A DNA stretch of 64,000 bases. It comes from Candidatus Diapherotrites archaeon LH_S9. Lineage in GTDB: Archaea; B1Sed10-29; WALL01; JAGXON01. The notes beneath the pieces are model-generated. The model saw only the letters and a list, made by a program, of their open reading frames with translations, did not search any database and was not told where the DNA came from. Below are positions 6,689 to 64,000 of this stretch, in pieces; positions within the stretch are counted from its first letter, which is position 1; every line of letters begins with the position of its first letter. The stretch covers positions 11,896-75,895 of the forward strand of contig JAGXON010000003.1 in NCBI GenBank assembly GCA_023659865.1, read 5' to 3'. The position numbers and the translations under genes were made by a program.

Positions 6689-6700
6689 GTATTTAAATAC
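6689..6700. promoter_or_regulatory. Palindromic TATA element between divergent acyP and eno
   Basis: GTATTTAAATAC is self-complementary and lies about 25-40 nt from both start codons. Confidence 0.5.
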
Positions 6701-52954: not shown

Positions 52955-55759
52955 ATGGAAAACCAAGAGATAAAGAACTACTGGAAAAAAAACAACATCC
53001 GCAAAAAAACCCTTGAAAAAAACAAGGGAAAAGAGAAAAAATTCTTTATAGACGGACCGCCGTACGCTACAGGCAGCATACACATGGGAACCGCATTAAA
53101 CAAAATACTTAAAGACTACTACTTGCGCTACTTTCGTATGAAAGGATATGACGTTCTTTCACAGCCCGGGTACGACGTTCACGGCCTCCCGATCGAGAAC
53201 AAGGTCGAAGAAGAACTAGGTATCAAAGGAAAACAAGAAATCGAGGAGATGGGAGTCAAAAAATTCGTTGACAAATGCAAGCACTTCGCAGAAAAACACG
53301 TCAAAGAAATGACTGAACAATTCAAGAATCTGGGCGTATGGATGGACTGGGAAAACCCGTACGTTGCCTTCCAGGACAACTACATCGAAGGAGCATGGCA
53401 CACGTTTAAGAAAGCAGAAGAAAAAGGCTTGCTCTACAAAGGCAAATACCCTGTGCACGTCTGCCCACGATGCGAAACCGTTGTAGCATACAACGAAATA
53501 GAGTACGAGAAAAAAGAGGATACAGCAGTCTACGTGAAATTCAAGCTAAAAGACTCCAACGACTACCTCCTGATCTGGACCACGACACCATGGACCATCC
53601 CATCAAACACAGGAGTCATGATCAACCCAGAAAAAACCTACGTCAAAGTCAAGACCATGGCAGGAAACCTTATAATGGCTAAAAAGCTTCTGCCGGAAGT
53701 TATGGAAAAACTTGAAATCGGTTACAACGTTCAAGAAGAATTCAAAGGAGAAGAATTTGTAGGAAAAGAGTACGAGCACCCGATGGACCTCGAGATCCAG
53801 GAAAAAATCAACGGAAAAGTCGTTCCGTCACAAAGATACGTTGAACTCGAAACAGGAACAGGCCTCGTCCACACAGCTCCAGGCCACGGAAAAGAAGACT
53901 TTGAAATAGGACAAAAAAATGATTTACAGTTGCTCAGTCCCGTGAACTTCTCAGGAGAGTACACAGAAGAAATAGGTGAAAAATACGCTGGGATGTACGT
54001 CAAAGACGCTGACCCTAAAATAATGGAAGAATTAAGGAAATCAAGGCACTTGATGCACTCGGAAAAAGTCACGCACGATTACCCACTGTGCTGGAGATGC
54101 GATTCACCGCTTATCTTCACCTCGATACCTCAATGGTTCTTCAAAATAAATGACATAAAAGAAGACTTGATCAAAGGAAACAAGGAAGTCAACTGGGTTC
54201 CTGACTGGGCAGGAAAAAGATTCCGCGACTGGCTAGGGAAACTATCGGACTGGCCGATAAGCAGACAAAGATACTGGGGAATACCTCTACCGATATGGGT
54301 CTGCGAAGAATGCGATAACCGAAAAGTACTTGGATCAGCGGAAGACCTGGACGTAGACGAACTGCACAAACCCGAAATAGATGAAGTAACCTTTGAATGC
54401 GAAGAGTGCGGAGGAACAATGAAAAGAGTTCCTGACGTTCTGGACGTATGGTTCGATGCAGGAGTAGCTCCATGGGCTTCACTGAATTACCCAAAAGAAA
54501 GACAGCCTTTTGAAGAGTTCTGGCCGATGGATTTCGTGCTCGAGGGCTCGGATCAGACGCGTGGATGGTGGAACTCACTAAGCATCTGCGGCTTGATCAC
54601 CATGGACGAAATGCCGTTCAAAAACGTTGTTCAGCACGGCATGGTAAAAGACACGAAAGGAAGAGAGATGTCAAAAAGCAAAGGGAACGTGATTGATCCT
54701 CAAGAAGCAATAGACAGGTACAACGAGGACCAGTTCAGGTTCTACCTCGTCTCCGAGAACGTTGCAAAAGACTTAACTTGGAACTGGCAGGAGCTCGACG
54801 AAGTCAGAAAATTCTTCAACATCTACAAGAACTGCGTCAGATTCAAGAATCTTTACTGTGAAAAAGGAGAAATGAAGAACTTGAGACCGGAAGACGAATG
54901 GATACTGTCTCGATTGAACACGGTTAAGAAAAACGTATTTGGATACACAGAGAACTTCAAAGCATTTAAAGCGGTCCAGGAACTCGAAGAATTCATAGTG
55001 GAAGACGTTTCCAGATGGTACATTAAACTCGTGCGAAACAGGACCTGGCCATCCTACCAAGGAGAAGACAAGAAAGCAGCTTTTGCTTGTTTGAACAAAG
55101 TCCTTGAAGAAACCAACAGGTTGATGGCTCCGATAGTGCCGTTGTTGTCTGAGAAACTTTATCAGGACAAAGAACAAAAAGAAGAAGAAAGCGTTCACCT
55201 GAAAGAACTGCCTGAATTGAACGAGAGCAGGATAGACGCAGAACTGGAAAAGCACATGGATTCAGCGAAACAAATCGTTGAAGCCTCGTACAACGCAAGA
55301 GAAAAAGCCCAGCTCAAAAGAAGGTGGCCAGTAAAACACCTTGTGGTCATGACAGAAGACAAAGCCACTGAAAAAGCAGTAGAAAGATTCCAGGAACTGT
55401 TAAAGAAAAGATGTAACACTGAAAACATCTTGCTCAACAAAGAAGTTTCTGAAGAAACCACTGAATCAGATTTCAGTAAAGGAACAGTTGAGATGAGCGC
55501 GGAAGAAATAACGGAAAAAGCCTTCAGAAGAGACTTGCTAAGAAAAATACAGCACTTGAGGAAGAAAGCAGACCTTGACGTTGAAGACGAGATAGATCTT
55601 CAGCTTTACTCTGAAGAAAAGAAGACAAGGAAGATGCTGGAAGAAGCTCAGGACAGAGTCGAAGAAAAAGTAAAGCTCGGCAGTTACTCAGTAGCTTTAA
55701 TAGAAGAGCCTAGAGGAAGAATGGATTACAAGGACAAGAAAGTGAAGATAGACTTCTAG
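52955..55759 (+). CDS. ileS: Isoleucyl-tRNA synthetase
   Basis: DGPPYATGSIHMGT, WTTTPWT, GTGLVHTAPGHG, SRQRYWG and EMSKSKGN. Confidence 0.97.
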   Translation: MENQEIKNYWKKNNIRKKTLEKNKGKEKKFFIDGPPYATGSIHMGTALNKILKDYYLRYFRMKGYDVLSQPGYDVHGLPIENKVEEELGIKGKQEIEEMGVKKFVDKCKHFAEKHVKEMTEQFKNLGVWMDWENPYVAFQDNYIEGAWHTFKKAEEKGLLYKGKYPVHVCPRCETVVAYNEIEYEKKEDTAVYVKFKLKDSNDYLLIWTTTPWTIPSNTGVMINPEKTYVKVKTMAGNLIMAKKLLPEVMEKLEIGYNVQEEFKGEEFVGKEYEHPMDLEIQEKINGKVVPSQRYVELETGTGLVHTAPGHGKEDFEIGQKNDLQLLSPVNFSGEYTEEIGEKYAGMYVKDADPKIMEELRKSRHLMHSEKVTHDYPLCWRCDSPLIFTSIPQWFFKINDIKEDLIKGNKEVNWVPDWAGKRFRDWLGKLSDWPISRQRYWGIPLPIWVCEECDNRKVLGSAEDLDVDELHKPEIDEVTFECEECGGTMKRVPDVLDVWFDAGVAPWASLNYPKERQPFEEFWPMDFVLEGSDQTRGWWNSLSICGLITMDEMPFKNVVQHGMVKDTKGREMSKSKGNVIDPQEAIDRYNEDQFRFYLVSENVAKDLTWNWQELDEVRKFFNIYKNCVRFKNLYCEKGEMKNLRPEDEWILSRLNTVKKNVFGYTENFKAFKAVQELEEFIVEDVSRWYIKLVRNRTWPSYQGEDKKAAFACLNKVLEETNRLMAPIVPLLSEKLYQDKEQKEEESVHLKELPELNESRIDAELEKHMDSAKQIVEASYNAREKAQLKRRWPVKHLVVMTEDKATEKAVERFQELLKKRCNTENILLNKEVSEETTESDFSKGTVEMSAEEITEKAFRRDLLRKIQHLRKKADLDVEDEIDLQLYSEEKKTRKMLEEAQDRVEEKVKLGSYSVALIEEPRGRMDYKDKKVKIDF

Positions 55760-56811
55760 CTCGAGAAAATTGTTGACCTGCGGATCCGATGGCCAATAGA
55801 TCCTAGTTTCTCTTTGAATGAAAATTCTTTTTCCTCTTCTTTTTCTATATCATAGCCCGTTTCTATTTCAAAGTTTTTTCTCACTTTATCCATCTTCTGC
55901 TCCATCTCCTTATTGAACTTGACCTCAGGATATACTTTCTTTCCTTCTAATTTTCCTTTCAGTCCCCGGAATCTTTTTGCCAGCCTTTTTACACGTTCTT
56001 CGTCTCTTTCAGGATCTAAAGGCCCGAAATGAACTTTTTGGAGAAAGTCAATGGCTTCTTCCGCGTTTTTGTTGTTGTTAAAACCTTTTCCTCTTACATA
56101 GTTCCTAACCACGTCCAGCAAGGGCCCTGTAACCTCGGGCCTGACGTATCCTTTTTTCTTCATCCTTCCTAACGTAGCAATTGAAAGCCTTCTAGCATCA
56201 GGATCAGGGTGGTAAGAAGCTATTCTCCCGATTTCTTTCGGGTGAGGGAAATTTTCCTCTTTTAAATGATCTAGAAGGTCCTCGGCAAGAACTCCTTCAC
56301 TTTCTGGCCCTCTCATTGCAAGCCCGGCCGTTCCTTTGCCCACGCCGAGCTCGTGACCAAGATAAGCTGTTAGTTTCCTGGCTTTTTCTCTTTTGTTTTC
56401 TTCACCCAGAAAGCTTCTGATTCTTCTTCCTACTTTACTGTTACCCATTTCAGACGTTACGTTGTTTCTTATCCATCGATAAGTGGCATCAGCTGCCGAC
56501 AGCTTTTGAAATGCTTCATCCCTTAAACTATCTCTTTTCCCCCACCTTAAAGTGTTCTCTAGCTTCAAAATCTCTTCTTTACCGATTTCCTCTTCTTCTG
56601 GCATCTTGTCCACTGAATCATAGCTTTGAGCTTTCTCTACCTTCGTCAATATCTCTGAGGCTTGGTGGCTCAAATCTGTGTCAGAATGATATAGAAAAGT
56701 GTTTCTCAGTTTGTCTATTTCTGTTGGCTCTATTTTCTCCATAGGTTTCTCAGATATTTCGGAAAGACTTTCTTCCGAGTTATAGGCCTCTTCTTCCTCA
56801 TCCTCTGGCAT
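55756..56811 (-). CDS. Charged helical (HEAT-like) orphan protein
   Basis: MPEDEEEE start; HPDPDARRLSIATLG HEAT-like unit; overlaps the ileS stop. Confidence 0.6.
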   Translation of the reverse strand: MPEDEEEEAYNSEESLSEISEKPMEKIEPTEIDKLRNTFLYHSDTDLSHQASEILTKVEKAQSYDSVDKMPEEEEIGKEEILKLENTLRWGKRDSLRDEAFQKLSAADATYRWIRNNVTSEMGNSKVGRRIRSFLGEENKREKARKLTAYLGHELGVGKGTAGLAMRGPESEGVLAEDLLDHLKEENFPHPKEIGRIASYHPDPDARRLSIATLGRMKKKGYVRPEVTGPLLDVVRNYVRGKGFNNNKNAEEAIDFLQKVHFGPLDPERDEERVKRLAKRFRGLKGKLEGKKVYPEVKFNKEMEQKMDKVRKNFEIETGYDIEKEEEKEFSFKEKLGSIGHRIRRSTIFSS

Positions 56812-57029
56812 ATTCTAATGATGACTTTTATACAATAAAAACATTTGTAATTGACCCGTAGTTTCAGTAGTGGTGTTCTGTGTTTCAAGCACTAATCTTT
56901 TATCGACTGAGTGCCAGAGAGGGTTCTGAACCCTTTTTCAACGCGTAATCTAACGCTATTTTACGAAAAGTTTTTAAATAGGGGTTTGTAAAAATAAAGT
57001 GAACCATAAAAAGATGGAGGTGTAAAAAT

Positions 57030-57233
57030 ATGACTGAATTACCAAAAGCAGCTGTCGACAGATTAGTAAGAAAAGCAGGAGCAGAGAGAGTAGCTAGCGA
57101 CGCAGTAGACGCTCTAGTCGACATTCTGGAAGATGTCGCTGCTGACATTTCAAGCCAAGCAAACAGAATCGCAAGGCACGCAGGCAGAAAAACTGTCACA
57201 GCAGATGACATCAAGATTGCTTCACGCGGCTAA
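57030..57233 (+). CDS. Canonical archaeal histone (HMf-like)
   Basis: ELPKAAVDRLVRKAGAERV..A..HAGRKTVTADDI. Confidence 0.96.
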   Translation: MTELPKAAVDRLVRKAGAERVASDAVDALVDILEDVAADISSQANRIARHAGRKTVTADDIKIASRG

Positions 57234-57331
57234 GGTTTATACCTTACTGTAGAGCAAACCCTTCTCTTTCTTTCTTTTATTTTTGTTCCCAAGCAAGAAC
57301 CTTTTTATTTCACGAATATATCTTTTAACCA

Positions 57332-58153
57332 ATGGCGGAAAACAATTTCTTCAGCAAAAATGACTTCATCCGCGTCATGTTACTAGCCTCCTCACTATTC
57401 TTTTTTGTAGGTACAATCCAGTCAGTATTCCTTCACTCGCAGTACTCAGGCCAAGTTAACAATGTGAAAGATGAACTTAGCTCGATTTCTGGCTTGATGG
57501 ACACAAAAGCAGAACAAAGCTATTCAGCTGGAGAAGAAGGATCTCTTGATTACAAGAAAGTCTCGGAAAAAGCAAAGTCTTACTCAAAAGAAATAGAAGG
57601 TCCTGAAGTAACTCCTTTTGCATATGTTTTCTTTAATCACTGGGTTTCAAGCGCAGCATTTACAAGAATGTCTTTAAGTCCTTCGGATCTTGGCGTACCA
57701 AACGCAACAAGAGCAGTGTTCGAAAAACTTAAAAACGAGGAAGTGCTCGGTAAAAAAGGCTGGACCAACAGACAGGAGTTCAGAGGCTTTTCCAAAAAAG
57801 AAGGAGAATACGTAGTTTTCCTTAAAAAACTTCCTGAAGCACAGACCTATTTCTGGACATTTTACATCTTCTCCTTTCTCATAGCTATCGTTTCAATTTA
57901 CGTCGGAACTAAAGAAAAATACTCGTTCAGTGTCGTGCCAGAACTTATATACGGAGCTCTTTGCTTCCTACCTTTCTGGGTGGTATTCTCATTTGCTGGA
58001 GCAATAGCGGAAACAGGATTGCTTGGGTTCCTTGATCCAACGAACGTTGACCTCTTTATCTACATAGTTGCCATGAACATAATGGGAGGAATCGGAGTTT
58101 TCTCCGGCCTGATAGCTGGCCTTCTTAGAATGAAGTTCAAGGAAAAAGAGTAA
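57332..58153 (+). CDS. Membrane protein with an extracytoplasmic loop domain
   Basis: N-terminal TM, about 140-aa loop, three C-terminal TMs. Confidence 0.65.
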   Translation: MAENNFFSKNDFIRVMLLASSLFFFVGTIQSVFLHSQYSGQVNNVKDELSSISGLMDTKAEQSYSAGEEGSLDYKKVSEKAKSYSKEIEGPEVTPFAYVFFNHWVSSAAFTRMSLSPSDLGVPNATRAVFEKLKNEEVLGKKGWTNRQEFRGFSKKEGEYVVFLKKLPEAQTYFWTFYIFSFLIAIVSIYVGTKEKYSFSVVPELIYGALCFLPFWVVFSFAGAIAETGLLGFLDPTNVDLFIYIVAMNIMGGIGVFSGLIAGLLRMKFKEKE

Positions 58154-58187
58154 TCTTTTATAATTTTTTCAACCCAAACTTCTTCAC

Positions 58188-59489
58188 ATGAATTCATTAC
58201 TCCACAATTGCAGAATAGTTGAAGACAGGAAGCTGGTCAAGAAAAACATCCTGATAGAAGACGGAAAAATAAAGAAAACAGGAAAAGAAATCGACGTCGA
58301 TCACGGCCAAAAAATAGATTTAAACGGAAACACAGTCATACCAGGAGTAATCGATCCTCACGTTCACTTCAGAGCTCCAGGAGCAGAATACAAAGAAAAC
58401 TGGGTTACTGGATCAAAAGCAGCAGCAAAAGGCGGAGTAACCACCGTTCTAGACATGCCTAACAACGATCCTCCGACCACGAACGTTCAAAGGCTTGAAA
58501 ACAAAAGAGAAATAGCTCGAAAATACAGTTTTGTGAATTACGGGTTCCACTTCGGAGCCACTCCGCGAAACAAAGAAGAAATAAAAAAAGCAGAGAACAT
58601 TGCTTCAGTTAAAGTATATATGAGCGGGGCTCGAGGAAACCTCATCATAAACGACTCCAACAAACTCTACGAACTCTTCTCACTCACGAAAAAACAAGGA
58701 CTTCTCACATCAGTACACGCCGAGAACAACCAGCTGGTCAACTATTTCCTTGAAAAATCAACTTCTTCAGACCCAAGCGTGCACTCCTGGATAAGAAAAA
58801 ACGTTTGCGCAGCAGAAGCTTCTTCAAGAACAGCAATACTATCAAAAGACATCGGAAACGACCTGCACATCTGCCACGTATCCACTGCAGAGGAAGTTGA
58901 AGTACTGCAACTGGCCGGTGGAAGAGTTACTGCAGAAGCAACTCCACACCACCTGCTCTTAACAGAAAAGCAATTGAACAGAATAGGTAACTTCGCGAAA
59001 GTCAACCCACCTCTCAGAACAAAGGAAGACCAGGAAGAATTATGGGAAGCGTTGAGAGGAGGCGTTATTAACATGCTGGCTTCAGATCACGCGCCGCACA
59101 CCAAGAAAGAAAAAGAAAGAGAGTACTGGAGCGCGCCAGCAGGAGTGCCAGGCGTTGAAACCTTGTTACCGCTGATGCTGAAAAAAGTTAGTGAGGGAAC
59201 CGTTTCGCTCGAGCGAGTTGTTGAACTCACGAGCAAAGAACCAGCAAGAGTGTTCGGCATACAGAACAAGGGAAGAATCCAACCAGGTTACGACGCGGAT
59301 CTGGCAGTGATCGATCTGGACAAAGAATGGGAGCTGTCGGATGAAGACATCGTGAGCAAGTGCGGTTGGACTCCTTTCGAAGGAATGCTCATGAAGGGAG
59401 ACGTGGAAAAAACGTTCGTGAACGGCGAACTAGTTTACGATAACGGAGAATTCGGAGAAGAAGCAGGAAAAGAAGTCAGTTTCTCCTGA
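58188..59489 (+). CDS. pyrC: Dihydroorotase (amidohydrolase superfamily)
   Basis: PGVIDPHVHFRAPG, HAEN, CHVST, KVNPPLR and SDHAPH. Confidence 0.88.
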   Translation: MNSLLHNCRIVEDRKLVKKNILIEDGKIKKTGKEIDVDHGQKIDLNGNTVIPGVIDPHVHFRAPGAEYKENWVTGSKAAAKGGVTTVLDMPNNDPPTTNVQRLENKREIARKYSFVNYGFHFGATPRNKEEIKKAENIASVKVYMSGARGNLIINDSNKLYELFSLTKKQGLLTSVHAENNQLVNYFLEKSTSSDPSVHSWIRKNVCAAEASSRTAILSKDIGNDLHICHVSTAEEVEVLQLAGGRVTAEATPHHLLLTEKQLNRIGNFAKVNPPLRTKEDQEELWEALRGGVINMLASDHAPHTKKEKEREYWSAPAGVPGVETLLPLMLKKVSEGTVSLERVVELTSKEPARVFGIQNKGRIQPGYDADLAVIDLDKEWELSDEDIVSKCGWTPFEGMLMKGDVEKTFVNGELVYDNGEFGEEAGKEVSFS

Positions 59490-59495
59490 AGTTAA

Positions 59496-59680
59496 TCACT
59501 TCAGCACTTTCCTTGTTTCCATGAACCACAAATACAAATCAAGTTCAGCGAGCGCTAGATCCGATTTCTCTTAGAACCTGCTCGATCTCCAAGTAATTCT
59601 TTTTACGCAACTTTCAATCAAACAATAATATACGGAAATCGGTTATCGCTAGGTTCTTGTAACCGATGTTTCTCAAGATC
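59496..59680 (-). pseudogene. ogg: Relic of archaeal 8-oxoguanine N-glycosylase/AP lyase (Ogg) C-terminus
   Basis: LRNIGYKNLAITDFRIL..*..KKNYLEIEQVLREIG, then a frameshift to LAELDLYLWFMETRKVLK*. Confidence 0.8.
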
Positions 59681-59775
59681 TTCAATTAGTTCATCCATTG
59701 GAACTAAGTTAAGTATGTTCATCAATAGAAAGATAAGAAAAAGGAAGGAGTTTAATCCTTGAAAAATTAGTTTTT

Positions 59776-60012
59776 CTACAGTTCTTCTATGGTTCGGGCT
59801 AAGAAATCCCTTACTTCTTCTTCACCTGAAGGGAAGCCTAGTCCATTCTTATATCTTTTTTCTCCGTCTGGAGTCATGAATCCTTTGGAGATGCTGACGA
59901 AATCTGTTCCTTCTTCAGATTCACTACCTATTACTTCTTTTCTCGCTACTTCTATGAAGTTGTTGTTCCCATATTCTATTGTTTCTTCTTCAACTGTTTT
60001 GTATTCTACCAT
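59776..60012 (-). CDS. Small protein, probable PC4/Whirly-like ssDNA-binding fold
   Basis: Beta-rich FIEVARK..FVSISKGF..RYKNGLGFP followed by a C-terminal helix. Confidence 0.5.
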   Translation of the reverse strand: MVEYKTVEEETIEYGNNNFIEVARKEVIGSESEEGTDFVSISKGFMTPDGEKRYKNGLGFPSGEEEVRDFLARTIEEL

Positions 60013-60108
60013 CTGTATTCACCTTTCTTGTGTGTAATTTAGTTTGGCTTTTTTAACCTTTAAATACTTCTTCCTTTATGAACTTTATATATAAACTGGA
60101 GGACAAAA

Positions 60109-60384
60109 ATGGAGAACAAGTACAATGTCAAAATAGTTAACATGGTAGCTTCCGCTAATCTGAACATCGAACTAGACTTATTCTCTTTGGCTATGGAAGT
60201 TGACACAGTTGAATACGAGCCAGAACAATTCCCTGGAGCAATACTAAAGCTTTCTGAACCTAAATCAAGTTTACTTCTTTTCAAAAACGGGAAAGTAATC
60301 TGCACAGGCGCAAGAACTGAAGAAGACGTGGAGAAAGCCCTGAAGCAGACCACAGACCTTGTTTCCGATTTTGTCAACAAATAA
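60109..60384 (+). CDS. tbp: Single-repeat (half-length) TATA-binding protein homolog
   Basis: IVNMVAS..LDL..EYEPEQFPG..PK..LLFKNGKVICTGAR; only one of the two TBP repeats, 91 aa. Confidence 0.9.
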   Translation: MENKYNVKIVNMVASANLNIELDLFSLAMEVDTVEYEPEQFPGAILKLSEPKSSLLLFKNGKVICTGARTEEDVEKALKQTTDLVSDFVNK

Positions 60385-60635
60385 AAAACCGAAAGATTTA
60401 TAAACAGGGATGAATACATGTTAATTGCTGCCTAGGGAAGTATCTTAGGTCTTCAACTAGGAACCCTTAGTAAAGTAAAATGAAAGGGGATGTTTCCTGA
60501 TAGAGCGTCAGGAAGTAAGAACAAGAAGAAATATCTTGTTGGCCGAATGAAGATGGAAAAAAAGAGGAGAAATGCCTCTAACTAAGCTTAGTTTCTAGGT
60601 AGCAAGTTCATTTCTTCTTTCATCTTTATTTTCTT

Positions 60636-61115
60636 CTAGTCTTTTTCTTCCTTGACTTTCTTGTGCTCTTCTTTCTTTTTTTTCTTCACTTTTTTCTTGG
60701 CTTTCTTCAACTGCTTTTTTTCTTCTCCTTCAGTGAAAGAGCTTCCGAACAAGAAACCGATACCGAAATTAAGTAGTGCGGACCACTGCGTGTCCATCAA
60801 GCCTCTGAGGTTCTTTGCTGCAGGAAGAAGAAATTCATACCATTTTCCACCAGTTCTTCCAACTAAAGTCACGAGGAAGCCCTCGTCTTCATCGGAGAAG
60901 AGCCATCTGAAATTGTACTCGTACGGAAATATCTTCACTTTCGTTTCAACTATGCCTTCTTTTTCGTTCACATCGATTTCTGACTCAAAGCCTGCTTCTT
61001 TACCGTACTTGTACCTAGCGTCTTCCATCAATCCTTCAGAAATAGATTCAATCGCTCTTAAAACAGCTTTTCTTGGAATTCCTTTGAAGTGAGCTTGTTC
61101 TTTTATCTTGGTCAT
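60636..61115 (-). CDS. Hypothetical protein with Lys-rich tail
   Basis: 159-aa ORF with SD upstream; family not recognised. Confidence 0.6.
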   Translation of the reverse strand: MTKIKEQAHFKGIPRKAVLRAIESISEGLMEDARYKYGKEAGFESEIDVNEKEGIVETKVKIFPYEYNFRWLFSDEDEGFLVTLVGRTGGKWYEFLLPAAKNLRGLMDTQWSALLNFGIGFLFGSSFTEGEEKKQLKKAKKKVKKKKKEEHKKVKEEKD

Positions 61116-61181
61116 GTTAACCCCAATCCCTTTTTAACCCTTACAATTTATAAATGTTTCACGCAAAAGAAACTTGCTCGT

Positions 61182-61289
61182 GGGCTGGTAGCTTAGCCAG
61201 TACTGCTCGCTTTATGTAAGTGGTACCTAAACAGGTAGAGCGCTCGACTGATAATCGAGAGGTCGGGAGTTCGAATCTCCTCCAGCCCA
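61182..61289 (+). tRNA. tRNA-Ile(GAT) with a 34-nt D-loop intron (61199-61232)
   Basis: GGGCTGG/CCAGCCC+A; CTCGA-CTGATAA-TCGAG; BHB with central TTAG/CTAA, 3-nt bulges CCA/ACA and lower helix GTAC/GTAC. Confidence 0.9.
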
Positions 61290-61301
61290 TCCAACTTTTT
61301 T

Positions 61302-61457
61302 TTACTCGTATCCTAAAGCGTCAACTGGATCCAGTTTTGCTGCTGATCTTGCGGGCAAGAACCCGGAAATTGTTCCAACTATAAACGAAAACAGTAAGCT
61401 ACCGATGATTATTGCTGGACTAAAGCTTGCTTTAAGCAGATATGGGACAGATCGAAG
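61302..61457 (-). pseudogene. Relic of a MacB/FtsX-type ABC permease C-terminus
   Basis: ..IIIGSLLFSFIVGTISGFLPARSAAKLDPVDALGYE*; upstream in-frame stop and no start. Confidence 0.8.
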
Positions 61458-61566
61458 TCACGCCTGTGGAGACAGAACCTCTGTTCGTAAGAGCAAGTTC
61501 GGTCGTGGAATCAGGAAGCTCCTTGCGACAGCTAGGAGTAGTTCACTGTGTTACTCTTCCTTGTTT

Positions 61567-62079
61567 TTATTTTTTTTCTTGTAGTTTTGTCTGCATGGTC
61601 TTTGGGGTTAGTTTCTTTTTCTTGGCTTCTTCTCCAAAGTAACGCGTGAATTTGCGGGTGGTCTCAAGAACGTAAGTGCGTTTTTGCTTAGTTTTCTTCA
61701 CGAAACTACGTTCTACTAGTTCGTCTATATGCTTGTATGACTTGTTACCACGAATTTTAGCGACTTTAGATTGCTTTATAGGTTGTTTGAAAGCGATTAG
61801 TGCAAGTGTTCGGAGCACAGCTTTCGAGAAGTCTTTTTCTGAAGCGAGTGAAGAAACTTTTTTTGTTAACTCTCTTTTCGGCGCCATCCTGTACTTGTTT
61901 TCCTCTGTTTTAATGATCTCGAGCGCGTCGTTCGCTTCGTTGAACTGTTTTTGCGCTTTCTTGATTATCTTCAGGCCTTTATCGTATTCTGTTGTGTTCA
62001 CGAGGTTCATGAGTTGTCTGGTTGATAATGGGTTAGGGCTCATGAAGAGTGCTGCTGTCACTATTTTCTTTGGGTCCAT
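61567..62079 (-). CDS. scpB: SMC-Scp complex subunit ScpB
   Basis: AALFMSPNPLS, LRTLALIAFKQPIKQS..IRG and TTRKFTRYFG. Confidence 0.93.
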   Translation of the reverse strand: MDPKKIVTAALFMSPNPLSTRQLMNLVNTTEYDKGLKIIKKAQKQFNEANDALEIIKTEENKYRMAPKRELTKKVSSLASEKDFSKAVLRTLALIAFKQPIKQSKVAKIRGNKSYKHIDELVERSFVKKTKQKRTYVLETTRKFTRYFGEEAKKKKLTPKTMQTKLQEKK

Positions 62080-62131
62080 GGGTAGAAGTAAAAAGAAAGA
62101 GATTTTAAAAAGATTTTTTTGCTTGAAAAAA

Positions 62132-62773
62132 TTACTCTTCCACAATTTCCTTCAGCTTTTTCAATAGTCCTGCGGTTGAGGGGCCAGGGCCCTTTCCGCT
62201 TATTATAGCCATCCTAGATCCGCTTGTATCCTCTTTTAGTGTTCTCATCAGTTCTTCCAGTTGTCCGTCTTCAAAATGGTCTCGTTTTAAGTAATTTCTA
62301 AGTGCTAGTATGTTCATAAGTTTTTTTGCTCCTTTTGTTGTTGAGCCTTTTTCAGTTATTGTGTTTGTAGCGCCTTGAACTATGTTCTTGAAGTCTTTTT
62401 CTTTGAGTAAGTTGTTTTCTTTCATTGTTTTCACGAGATGTGAAGCCTTGTTTACCACTCTCATATCCGAGCTGGCAAAGAGAATTTTGTCTGACAGTTC
62501 TCCTGACTTTTCTTCTATCAGGTCTGGATGAGTTTTTGCCAAAATTTCCAGCACGTTAATGTTCTTTTTCTGAATATCGCTAGGTTCATGCCCTAGTTTA
62601 TCTATAGCTGAGTCTCTTACTTTTCCAGCTTCTTCAGCATTAAACAGATATTTTGTTCTCCTAACTAATCTTTCTTTTTCTCTTAGTCCTGCTTTACCGA
62701 TGTCCTTGATCTTGTTAACATGATCTTCTAATTGTTCTCTCTCTTCAGCTTTTTTTTCTTCAAACAAAGGCAT
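62132..62773 (-). CDS. Charged orphan, paralog of 4245..5012, lying between scpA and scpB
   Basis: See the shared blocks listed for 4245..5012. Confidence 0.85.
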   Translation of the reverse strand: MPLFEEKKAEEREQLEDHVNKIKDIGKAGLREKERLVRRTKYLFNAEEAGKVRDSAIDKLGHEPSDIQKKNINVLEILAKTHPDLIEEKSGELSDKILFASSDMRVVNKASHLVKTMKENNLLKEKDFKNIVQGATNTITEKGSTTKGAKKLMNILALRNYLKRDHFEDGQLEELMRTLKEDTSGSRMAIISGKGPGPSTAGLLKKLKEIVEE

Positions 62774-62811
62774 TGTTTCACCAGTAATTTATTTTTCTTT
62801 TTCCTGTGAAT

Positions 62812-63525
62812 TTAATTGTTCTGTTTTTCAGGTAGTGTGATGAATATTTCTTCGAAGTACTCGTCTTGCCATATTGCAACACGTTCATCGTTCGCCAGTT
62901 GGAGCAACGGAATAAAAGTCTTCAGGACCTCGAGCCGAGTGTCCTCCTCCAACAGATTTGAAAAACAAGTTATTCGCTCTCCATTCAACGAATTCTTTAC
63001 AGCTTCCTCTAACTCATCCAAAGGCTTGGCCAATTCCTTGATCTGATGCAGTTGATTTGTGTCAAACGATTTCTTGATTTTTTCTTTTTTCTTTTCTTGT
63101 TTCGCCTTGGTTCTGGCCTTTTTTTTCTGTTTCTCTATCACTGTTTCAACTGCGTCTATCAATTCATCGACGGTGACTTTTCTTTTCGTCACTCTTTTCC
63201 TGGCCTTTATTTCGGGGACGCGTTCGCCTTCAATGAAGTACTTCCAGTCCATCAGATCTTCTTCAGTTTCTTTCTTGTCCTGTTTTTTCTTGATTTGCCA
63301 GGTGTCGGACTTCATTCTTAGCAGGATAGAGCTCGCGAGAACAGCGTTTGCTGGAACGTGGAAATCGTTTTTTTTCATTGCCCGGATTTTTTTCAGGTAC
63401 TTTTCTGAGAGAACAATTAGATCTAGGTTCCAGGGGTCCATGCCCTCTTTTTTCACTGTCTGCCTGAGCAGGCTTTTCCACCCAGGTTTTTCTATCATGT
63501 CCACGAAAGTTGTTTCTTTTGGCAT
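62812..63525 (-). CDS. scpA: SMC-Scp complex kleisin ScpA
   Basis: MDPWNLDL, VLASSILLRMKS, VTVDELIDA, FIPLLQL and WQDEYFEEI. Confidence 0.9.
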   Translation of the reverse strand: MPKETTFVDMIEKPGWKSLLRQTVKKEGMDPWNLDLIVLSEKYLKKIRAMKKNDFHVPANAVLASSILLRMKSDTWQIKKKQDKKETEEDLMDWKYFIEGERVPEIKARKRVTKRKVTVDELIDAVETVIEKQKKKARTKAKQEKKKEKIKKSFDTNQLHQIKELAKPLDELEEAVKNSLNGERITCFSNLLEEDTRLEVLKTFIPLLQLANDERVAIWQDEYFEEIFITLPEKQNN

Positions 63526-63552
63526 AGGGAAACCCTTAAATATGTTTCTTAA

Positions 63553-64000
63553 GTGAACTACCGCTACCAAAATCAAGGATTTTGGAAGTGGTTTCCTGCG
63601 AGTGTTTGGACATTGGCTTGTGAGCGTATTCCGAACCTGTTTGTCGCAGCAAACCTCTCATGAAGGGAGATTGCTCGTCCACAGAGCGTTCTTGCGATAG
63701 GAAACGGTTCATTATGTTTACTGCAGAGTTTTTGTCTCTGTCCATGTTGTTTCCACAATCGCAGTCGATATTCCTTTCGTAGAGTGGTCTATTCTCTTTC
63801 TTACCGCAAACACAGCATGTTTTTGTAGTATTTGCTTCGTTGATTTCTATTACTTTTTTACCTTCAAGTTTTGCTTTGTAGGTTAGAAATCTAGCGAATC
63901 TGGATATTGTTCCTGTGTTTTGCAAGCTTCTATGTAGTGTTTTATCCCTCTTTCTGTCTTCTTTTTCATTACTAGCCATTTTTTTGACGTTCAAGTCTCC
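63553..64000 (-). mobile_element. tnpB: 3' part of an IS200/IS605-type element: TnpB C-terminus plus right end (truncated by the window)
   Basis: FLTYKA..G..V..INEANTTKTCCVCG..CDCG..MDRDKNSAVNI; right-end hairpin CCAAAATC-CTT-GATTTTGG followed by TAGTTCAC. Confidence 0.9.

Follow-up and report, generated by a model that had tools for sequence, protein, structure and literature searches.

TBP (TATA-box-binding protein) is a textbook pseudo-symmetric protein that is thought to have descended from a homodimer. In the stretch of DNA analysed here (hereafter the window: 64,000 nucleotides of contig JAGXON010000003.1 from Candidatus Diapherotrites archaeon LH_S9), the gene given below was found to encode a genuine stand-alone TBP of a single repeat, which is the product of neither truncation nor misassembly. 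TBP in this organism is probably made from separately encoded single repeats, represented in the window by an accessory paralogue, here called type A, while a second single-repeat gene of the same assembly, type B, is the universal copy.

60109..60384, plus strand: type-A single-repeat TBP gene, 91 amino acids (aa), one TBP repeat, TAA stop

The 91-aa product gave one Pfam match, to PF00352 (E 2.6e-27), which spanned profile positions 2-84 of 85, and by sequence and fold it carries the repeat of the TBP family (PF00352; NCBIfam PRK00394, TATA-box-binding protein). Of the two tandem repeats per polypeptide that form the TBP saddle, it has one only. NCBIfam models of full-length TBPs matched the protein over one half only, with 65-90 bits compared to cut-offs of 181-347 bits, and either half of these models could be matched. 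Similarly, when archaeal TBPs of solved structure were compared, the protein was about as close to the first repeat as to the second (73.4 and 76.6 bits for the two repeats of M. jannaschii TBP, 2z8u, with S. acidocaldarius, 1mp9, and P. woesei, 1ais, behaving alike), the identity to such single repeats being 44-49%. An AlphaFold2 model based on an alignment of 48 homologues reached a predicted local distance difference test score (pLDDT) of 92.8 and was placed by Foldseek on one lobe of solved TBPs, with template-modelling scores of 0.86-0.91 normalised by the query (TMq) and about 0.45 normalised by the target (TMt), at a root-mean-square deviation of about 1 Å. The preliminary description of this stretch had reported an open reading frame (ORF) with exactly one TBP repeat, a clean TAA end and no second repeat nearby, all of which was confirmed: the Pfam match and the overlay on one TBP lobe establish the single repeat, the TAA is present, and a search of the whole assembly reading through stops (E <= 10) found no second TBP repeat on the window's contig, so that there is no hidden or decayed second half.

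The assembly amounts to 671 kb in 38 contigs and is 66% complete. A genome search for a full-length TBP or a second half, as had been suggested at the outset, returned no full-length TBP but did return a separate single-repeat gene, on contig C26. Of the 13 species genomes searched in the order, 12 had TBP matches, and each canonical match was an open frame with one repeat; a canonical two-repeat TBP was found in 0 of the 13, which include three genomes of 92%, 96% and 98% completeness. Eight relatives carry single-repeat orthologues of the window gene. The preliminary description had named a full TBP at this locus in relatives as a sign of recent truncation or misassembly, and what the comparison yielded at the locus were syntenic single-repeat orthologues. 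Across the class (31 genomes of Iainarchaeia-type DPANN), 28 genomes had TBP matches; 23 of these 28 contain single-repeat genes only, two adjacent repeats in one frame occur in just four (G014, G016, G018 and G019), and one further match is cut by a contig end. G015, an assembly of two contigs and 91% completeness, has exactly one TBP repeat. Finally, a homologue search of 5.8 billion proteins with the window TBP gave 866 matches of 50-159 aa, many of which were 88-100 aa long and located on contigs of up to 1.17 Mb, and the close matches were labelled 'Diapherotrites' or 'Micrarchaeota'.

Alignment to solved TBPs placed positions 9-80 of the query in register with positions 7-78 of the yeast core chain, corresponding to residues 67-138. 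In this register, N11, V13, F41, F58 and T66 of type A align with N69, V71, F99, F116 and T124 of yeast TBP, which in TBP-DNA structures are minor-groove contacts (Asn, Val, Thr) and intercalating phenylalanines; type A, in other words, has the Phe pair and the Asn, Val and Thr contacts by which a TBP binds DNA. N11, V13, F41, F58, G67 and the stirrup E35-Q40 are invariant in 48 single-repeat homologues, and T66 is kept in the sequences inspected. At the residue level, an acidic stirrup suited to binding TFB/TFIIB is also in place, since E35-Y-E-P-E-Q40 agrees at every residue with the C-terminal stirrup of TBP from P. woesei (1ais), which contacts TFB in that structure. Moreover, comparison of the window gene with three orthologues gave 0.13-0.17 nonsynonymous differences per site (pN) against saturated synonymous differences (pS) of 0.70-1.05, which argues for strong constraint on the protein; judged by these values, the gene is under strong purifying selection and not a relic.

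Type B is an 89-aa single-repeat ORF on the 1.2-kb contig C26, and is 55% identical to the window protein. Directly downstream of this half-TBP lies a TnpB/IS200-605-like fragment (L002:622-1212, minus strand, on G000:C26), which probably explains both the assembly break and the 1.2-kb length of the contig. A maximum-likelihood tree was calculated from 58 repeats, which came from single-repeat proteins, from the class's two-repeat TBPs (both the N and the C repeat), from seven outgroup archaea and from G040. The sequences of the class all grouped in a single clade (100/100), to which the canonical N and C repeats of the seven outgroups did not belong, and the window protein was found there within a well-supported group of 11 sequences (99/97), nine of which are type-A orthologues from the families f1, f2 and f3. 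The mean identity was 79% within type A and 75% within type B, compared to 63% between the two, and each type has its own conserved residues (IVNMVAS, DLF, VDT and GKVICTGAR in type A; IENIVAS, DLY, LDN and GKMICTGAK in type B).

In the gene-order comparison, the type-A locus was variable, featuring a dihydroorotase, a 78-aa protein, a 159-aa protein and a 273-aa membrane protein. At the type-B locus, a small membrane protein adjoins the TBP gene and is followed by L21e (a ribosomal protein), Rpo4/F (RpoF, a subunit of RNA polymerase), DUF655 and KsgA, as assigned with Pfam. The cluster of L21e, Rpo4/F, DUF655 and KsgA recurs beside the TBP gene in f8, where it has two repeats, and in f5 and f4, where it has one, and type B therefore occupies the ancestral TBP locus; the copy on C26, with the membrane protein followed by TBP, corresponds to the start of this arrangement. 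Because the second single-repeat gene holds the ancestral locus, the window gene is the accessory paralogue, belonging to f1-f3. Type A is absent from f4 and the rest of the class, and the two types occur together in 9/9 genomes of f1-f3. In one genus (G005, G007 and G011), the type-A proteins carry an N-terminal tail of 60-130 aa, lysine- and alanine-rich and histone-H1-like, which is missing from type B of the same genus. Such a tail would fit a specialised alternative factor better than a fixed partner. The tailed orthologues are encoded at the following positions.

L052:7004-7696, minus strand: tailed type-A orthologue
L043:7076-7768, minus strand: tailed type-A orthologue
L047:5824-6327, minus strand: tailed type-A orthologue

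Among the possibilities raised initially was a split TBP, with separate genes for the N and C halves. The tree speaks against this, as both paralogues belong to a single clade specific to the class, which excludes the canonical N and C repeats. A grouping of A and B as orthologues of the N and C repeats was rejected, since a tree that forces all N repeats away from all C repeats costs 64.9 log-likelihood units (approximately unbiased (AU) test, p 0.0003), in a comparison whose grouping was named after the tree had been seen. As to an origin of the single repeat from specifically the N or the C repeat, the comparisons favour neither: the solved TBPs match almost equally on both, the NCBIfam models align with either half, and the class clade lies between N and C. 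In the two-repeat TBPs of the class, the two repeats cluster together and share 71-80% identity, compared to 46-62% in the outgroups, and both carry the class signatures FPGAILKL and SLLLFKNGK, which differ from the FPGLVYRL and LLFSSGK of canonical archaeal TBP. This level of identity and the common signatures indicate that the two-repeat genes were either re-duplicated from a single repeat or homogenised by gene conversion, and the same proteins show that two copies of such a repeat do make up a working saddle.

Three dimers are conceivable in the source genome, namely A2, B2 and A-B. We consider it likely that type A is a functional TBP subunit which, though made as half-size chains, is competent to homodimerise and has a dimeric DNA-binding role. 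Two half-size chains would pair via their S1 strands into the usual ten-stranded saddle, as A2 and possibly also as A-B. Each chain would supply an intercalating Phe pair (F41, F58) together with the minor-groove contacts N11, V13 and T66, as well as an acidic stirrup, E35-Y-E-P-E-Q40, able to bind TFB. Given the exact symmetry of a homodimer, it would fall to TFB alone, through its reading of the B recognition element (BRE), to fix the polarity of a promoter; in archaea, polarity is already largely determined in this manner. The assembly contains a TFB gene, which runs into a contig end but retains its C-terminal cyclin repeat and helix-turn-helix. f4 and most other families of the class have one TBP gene only, and in f4 and G015, with a single one-repeat gene each, a homodimer must therefore suffice.

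An obligate A-B heterodimer, in which the duplicated one-repeat paralogues would serve as non-identical saddle halves in trans and restore pseudo-symmetry in f1-f3, is in our view unlikely, though it deserves to be taken seriously; it would amount to a split TBP by function, not by origin. The strict co-occurrence of the two genes in f1-f3 agrees with such a division of labour, as do the type-specific conserved residues and the higher identity within types than between them. However, neither paralogue shows the relaxation that would be expected of a dedicated half, as both keep the full set of DNA-contact and TFB-stirrup residues. Moreover, f4 and most of the class manage with one gene, the tree and the AU test do not make A and B orthologues of the canonical N and C repeats, and the long lysine tail is found on type A only, in one genus.

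Considerably less probable is that type A acts as a regulator or decoy, a TBP mimic that would titrate TFB, TATA boxes or type-B subunits and take no part in initiation. This idea, which the preliminary description had also entertained, draws on the accessory nature of type A, missing in f4 and the rest of the class, and on the precedent of halobacterial TbpA, a known single-domain TBP that is non-essential (PMC3597702). A pure decoy would, however, be expected to lose one of its two surfaces, whereas type A keeps all of the residues for DNA and TFB binding and is conserved to the same degree as type B; a mimic or regulator is disfavoured for this reason. A recently truncated or misassembled two-repeat TBP, which the fragmented assembly (38 contigs, 66% complete) might seem to suggest, has next to no credibility and is refuted in practice, given that the gene, whose start, stop and promoter are clean, sits far from the ends of its contig, midway along 102 kb, that no second-repeat remnant appears even when stops are read through, and that eight orthologues of equal length in other assemblies and the purifying selection described above go with it.

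Several points weigh against type A being a functional, homodimerising subunit in a genome of single-repeat TBPs. With the assembly at 66% completeness, a two-repeat TBP is excluded here only by analogy with the 92-98% complete relatives. Type B has a long branch and lies on a 1.2-kb contig beside the TnpB-like fragment, and its assignment to this genome is based on binning, GC content (41.2% vs 42.3%) and synteny. As both paralogues keep both functional surfaces, sequence cannot decide whether type A is an alternative homodimeric TBP or a heterodimer partner, and an A homodimer, an A-B heterodimer or both would look the same at this level; dimerisation, DNA binding and TFB recruitment by type A are what we infer. 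Finally, the TATA element of the TBP gene (given below) lies near the ATG, as for a nearly leaderless transcript, and yet a conserved Shine-Dalgarno-like block stands in between; with the TATA only 14-25 nt from the ATG, the transcription start of the gene is uncertain.

Compared to canonical archaeal TBP (two PF00352 repeats in about 180-190 aa; 2z8u, 1mp9, 1pcz and 1ais), type A has the same repeat fold, along with the Phe pair, the Asn, Val and Thr residues that touch the minor groove and the EYEPEQ stirrup that binds TFB. It differs in having one repeat per polypeptide, so that a saddle needs two chains, and in lacking the acidic C-terminal tail. Stand-alone TBP domains have been published before, the one account met in the literature searched being that of Halobacterium TbpA and the monopartite proteins of Thermococcales (Brindefalk et al. 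2013, PMC3597702). TbpA, itself non-essential, nearly copies a full TBP and exists beside full-length TBPs, and the Thermococcales family is divergent, only distantly TBP-like and coexists with a normal TBP (PMC3597702). Type A resembles both in being a stand-alone one-domain archaeal protein. In contrast to them, the one-repeat genes described here are close to TBP in sequence, hold the TBP locus and are accompanied by no full-length TBP in the order, the coexistence typical of the published examples being found neither in the source assembly nor in the 12 other genomes of the order. A comparative genomics study of DPANN merely lists TBP as present (PMC8407392), and the literature searched contained nothing on one-repeat TBPs of DPANN or on replacement of the two-repeat gene.

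Other unusual TBP-like proteins and TBP gene surroundings were encountered in the class. In G014, a 726-aa open frame (G014:C8:9538-10695) contains four consecutive TBP repeats of 50-77 bits each, and G014 also encodes a normal two-repeat TBP, whose C-terminal tail is long and rich in lysine; lysine-rich C-terminal tails were seen in class members outside the tailed type-A genus (L065, L049 and L069). A 218-aa protein of G005 (L044:6888-7544, plus strand, on G005:C1) starts with a lipoprotein-type signal (…LLAGC…), which is followed by two very divergent TBP-like repeats, and looks like an exported or membrane-anchored protein of TBP fold. In family f10 (L061, L063, L066, L067 and L068), the sole TBP gene is a single repeat located between a HerA/FtsK-like P-loop ATPase of about 500 aa and RNA polymerase subunit K, with TFB nearby. 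A KaiC/RadA-like P-loop ATPase (PF06745, E 7e-29; L036:7356-8096, plus strand, L069 and L042) adjoins the TBP gene in G002 and G014 and lies a few genes away in G005.

In the window, a gene for the 78-aa protein mentioned above is divergent from the TBP gene, with a spacer of 96 bp that contains candidate signals for both genes.

59776..60012, minus strand: gene for a 78-aa protein from a conserved family of small archaeal proteins, the predicted fold being four strands plus a helix (PC4-like)
60020..60023, minus strand: GGTG, Shine-Dalgarno-like block, 8 nt upstream of the ATG of the 78-aa gene
60059..60066, minus strand: TATA-like box TTTAAATA (minus strand: TATTTAAA), 47-54 nt upstream of the ATG of the 78-aa gene, for which it is a candidate promoter
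60084..60095, plus strand: TATA element TTTATATATAAA, perfectly palindromic over 12 bp and located 14-25 nt upstream from the start codon of the TBP gene
60098..60102, plus strand: GGAGG, Shine-Dalgarno-like purine block, 6 nt before the TBP ATG, with GAGGTG or GGAGG likewise in orthologues

The element TTTATATA that had been reported upstream of the TBP gene is indeed present, at 60084-60091 within the palindrome TTTATATATAAA. Its TTTATA core is invariant at the same position in five aligned orthologous intergenic regions, where it is followed by GGAGG or GAGGTG and then by the start codon. An A/T box (TTTAAAAGG, TTATAAAGG or CTATAAAAA) was found at the place equivalent to the second element in orthologous spacers, and by its position this second box would presumably belong to the promoter of the divergent gene for the 78-aa protein. 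Across the genome, TATA-like hexamers are most frequent 26-35 nt upstream of start codons, and such elements are therefore placed as expected for TBP-dependent promoters; the Shine-Dalgarno-like words GGAGG and AGGTG peak at -15 to -6, and GGTGA is enriched at -10 to -1. The palindromic 8-mers TTTATAAA, ATTTAAAT and TTATATAA are among the most enriched upstream words. Palindromic TATA boxes had been put forward as suiting a symmetric dimer, and the example cited, GTATTTAAATAC at 6689, does exist; since A/T-rich TATA boxes are, to our knowledge, near-palindromic in any archaeon, such words do not discriminate between the models.

The 78-aa protein gave no Pfam match at E <= 10 and no NCBIfam match, and the Pfam models of PC4 and DUF2128 matched none of 47 diverse members of its family at E <= 1. 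Its AlphaFold2 model (pLDDT 92) has antiparallel strands at 3-14, 18-28, 37-46 and 52-61 and a C-terminal helix at 65-77, that is, a predicted curved four-stranded antiparallel sheet with a C-terminal helix, as in PC4. In a Foldseek search of the PDB, the best match of the model was the PC4 homologue of phage T5 (4bg7; a weak E of 0.03, TMq 0.59), MoSub1 ranked sixth, and NTF2-like folds scored nearly as well (TMq 0.52-0.60). In the viral library BFVD, a single-stranded-DNA-binding protein ranked third and a protein with the PC4 C-terminal domain 37th, all at E > 0.001. An hhalign comparison with the human PC4 C-terminal domain, in the sequence of 1pcf, gave E 0.075-0.097, and in it strands 3 and 4 and the helix were aligned as expected. 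A PDB profile search with the 78-aa family returned only matches at chance level, to Lrp/AsnC-type regulators.

The predicted topology and size of the protein thus resemble those of the PC4/Sub1 C-terminal domain and of phage and prokaryotic PC4-like proteins (1pcf, 4bhm, 4bg7 and YdbC/DUF2128), whereas a significant sequence similarity, and with it a match to PF02229, is lacking, as is the lysine- and serine-rich N-terminal region of PC4/Sub1. The PC4-like neighbour of the preliminary description is upheld as far as the predicted four-strand-plus-helix fold is concerned and finds no counterpart in sequence: as modelled, the protein is PC4-like at the level of the fold only, and membership of the PC4 family is not established. 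It is probably a dimeric binder of single-stranded nucleic acid. PC4 and Pur-alpha have been stated to be absent from archaea (PMC3575825), and type II PC4-like domains function as dimers (PMC7549692).

The 78-aa family has a conserved motif (G-N-N-F-I-E-V-x-R-K ... F-x-S-x-S-x-G ... G-x-K-R-Y-K ... P) and is represented by 27 close homologues in the set of 5.8 billion proteins and by 247 clusters at 50% identity among 1.84 billion representatives. It occurs in at least 210 species genomes, with the labels Iainarchaeum, Aenigmatarchaeota, Undinarchaeales, Naiadarchaeum, Micrarchaeota and Thermoplasmatota, and in 30 of the 31 class genomes, mostly as a single copy. The window, G002, G005, G009 and G011 all have the gene directly beside type A in divergent orientation, across a spacer of about 80-100 bp, and the pair persists while the genes around it are reshuffled. 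In G007, three genes separate the two, which lie 2.5 kb apart, and in family f2 type A has other neighbours and the 78-aa gene is found on another contig. Among the 80 best genome loci of 78-aa homologues, 78 had no TBP repeat within 4 kb and the other two were already-known relatives; no other neighbour was common across lineages at these loci, a HerA-like ATPase being found in nine and eIF2-gamma in seven. The pairing is hence a conserved feature of f1 and f3 that is compatible with a shared bidirectional promoter region, and is no evidence of a general functional partnership. As the adjacency to TBP is limited to five sampled f1/f3 genomes, co-regulation can only be inferred from the conserved divergent arrangement.

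Downstream of the TBP gene, a 250-nt stretch (60385-60635) without any ORF or Rfam match separates it from the convergent gene of the 159-aa protein (60636-61115, minus strand). Five relatives also encode this protein near type A; it has no family match, and its end is a tail rich in lysine. Further along, a tRNA-Ile(GAT)-like gene of about 108 nt (61182-61289, plus strand) has a D-loop insertion of about 32 nt (around 61201-61233) that looks like a non-canonical intron. The Rfam model covers positions 5-66 only (41.3 bits), ARAGORN finds no tRNA in 55000-64000, and it was by eye that the acceptor, the T-arm and the anticodon arm were assigned. On the other side of the pair, a 67-aa archaeal histone (NCBIfam archaea_histone, E 4e-24) is encoded at 57030-57233 on the plus strand, and histone homologues lie at most 2 kb from the TBP gene in G018 and G026.

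The literature searched describes no organism that has a one-repeat protein as its sole TBP. With TBP in this order probably built from half-size chains, the proposal of a homodimeric ancestor becomes testable. A wider proposal, which we advance tentatively and rate as slightly less than evenly balanced, is that 23 of the 28 TBP-bearing genomes of the class, those of this order all among them, initiate transcription on a symmetric TBP homodimer of chains of about 90 aa, that the two-repeat TBPs of the class are secondary re-fusions, and that the A/B duplication repeats the step to pseudo-symmetry in trans. If this is true, the repeat number of TBP would be labile over evolutionary time, and proteins functionally equivalent to the postulated homodimeric ancestor would exist in living organisms. 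The 78-aa neighbour, in turn, adds a widespread archaeal family of small proteins with a predicted PC4-like fold. The order, with only one-repeat genes at the TBP locus, offers a natural system in which to ask if a TBP dimer that is symmetric is able to nucleate a pre-initiation complex with a direction, what share of promoter polarity rests on TFB and the BRE alone, and, with the one-gene state of f4 and the two-paralogue state of f1-f3 (this genome included) in a single lineage, how asymmetry evolves after duplication.

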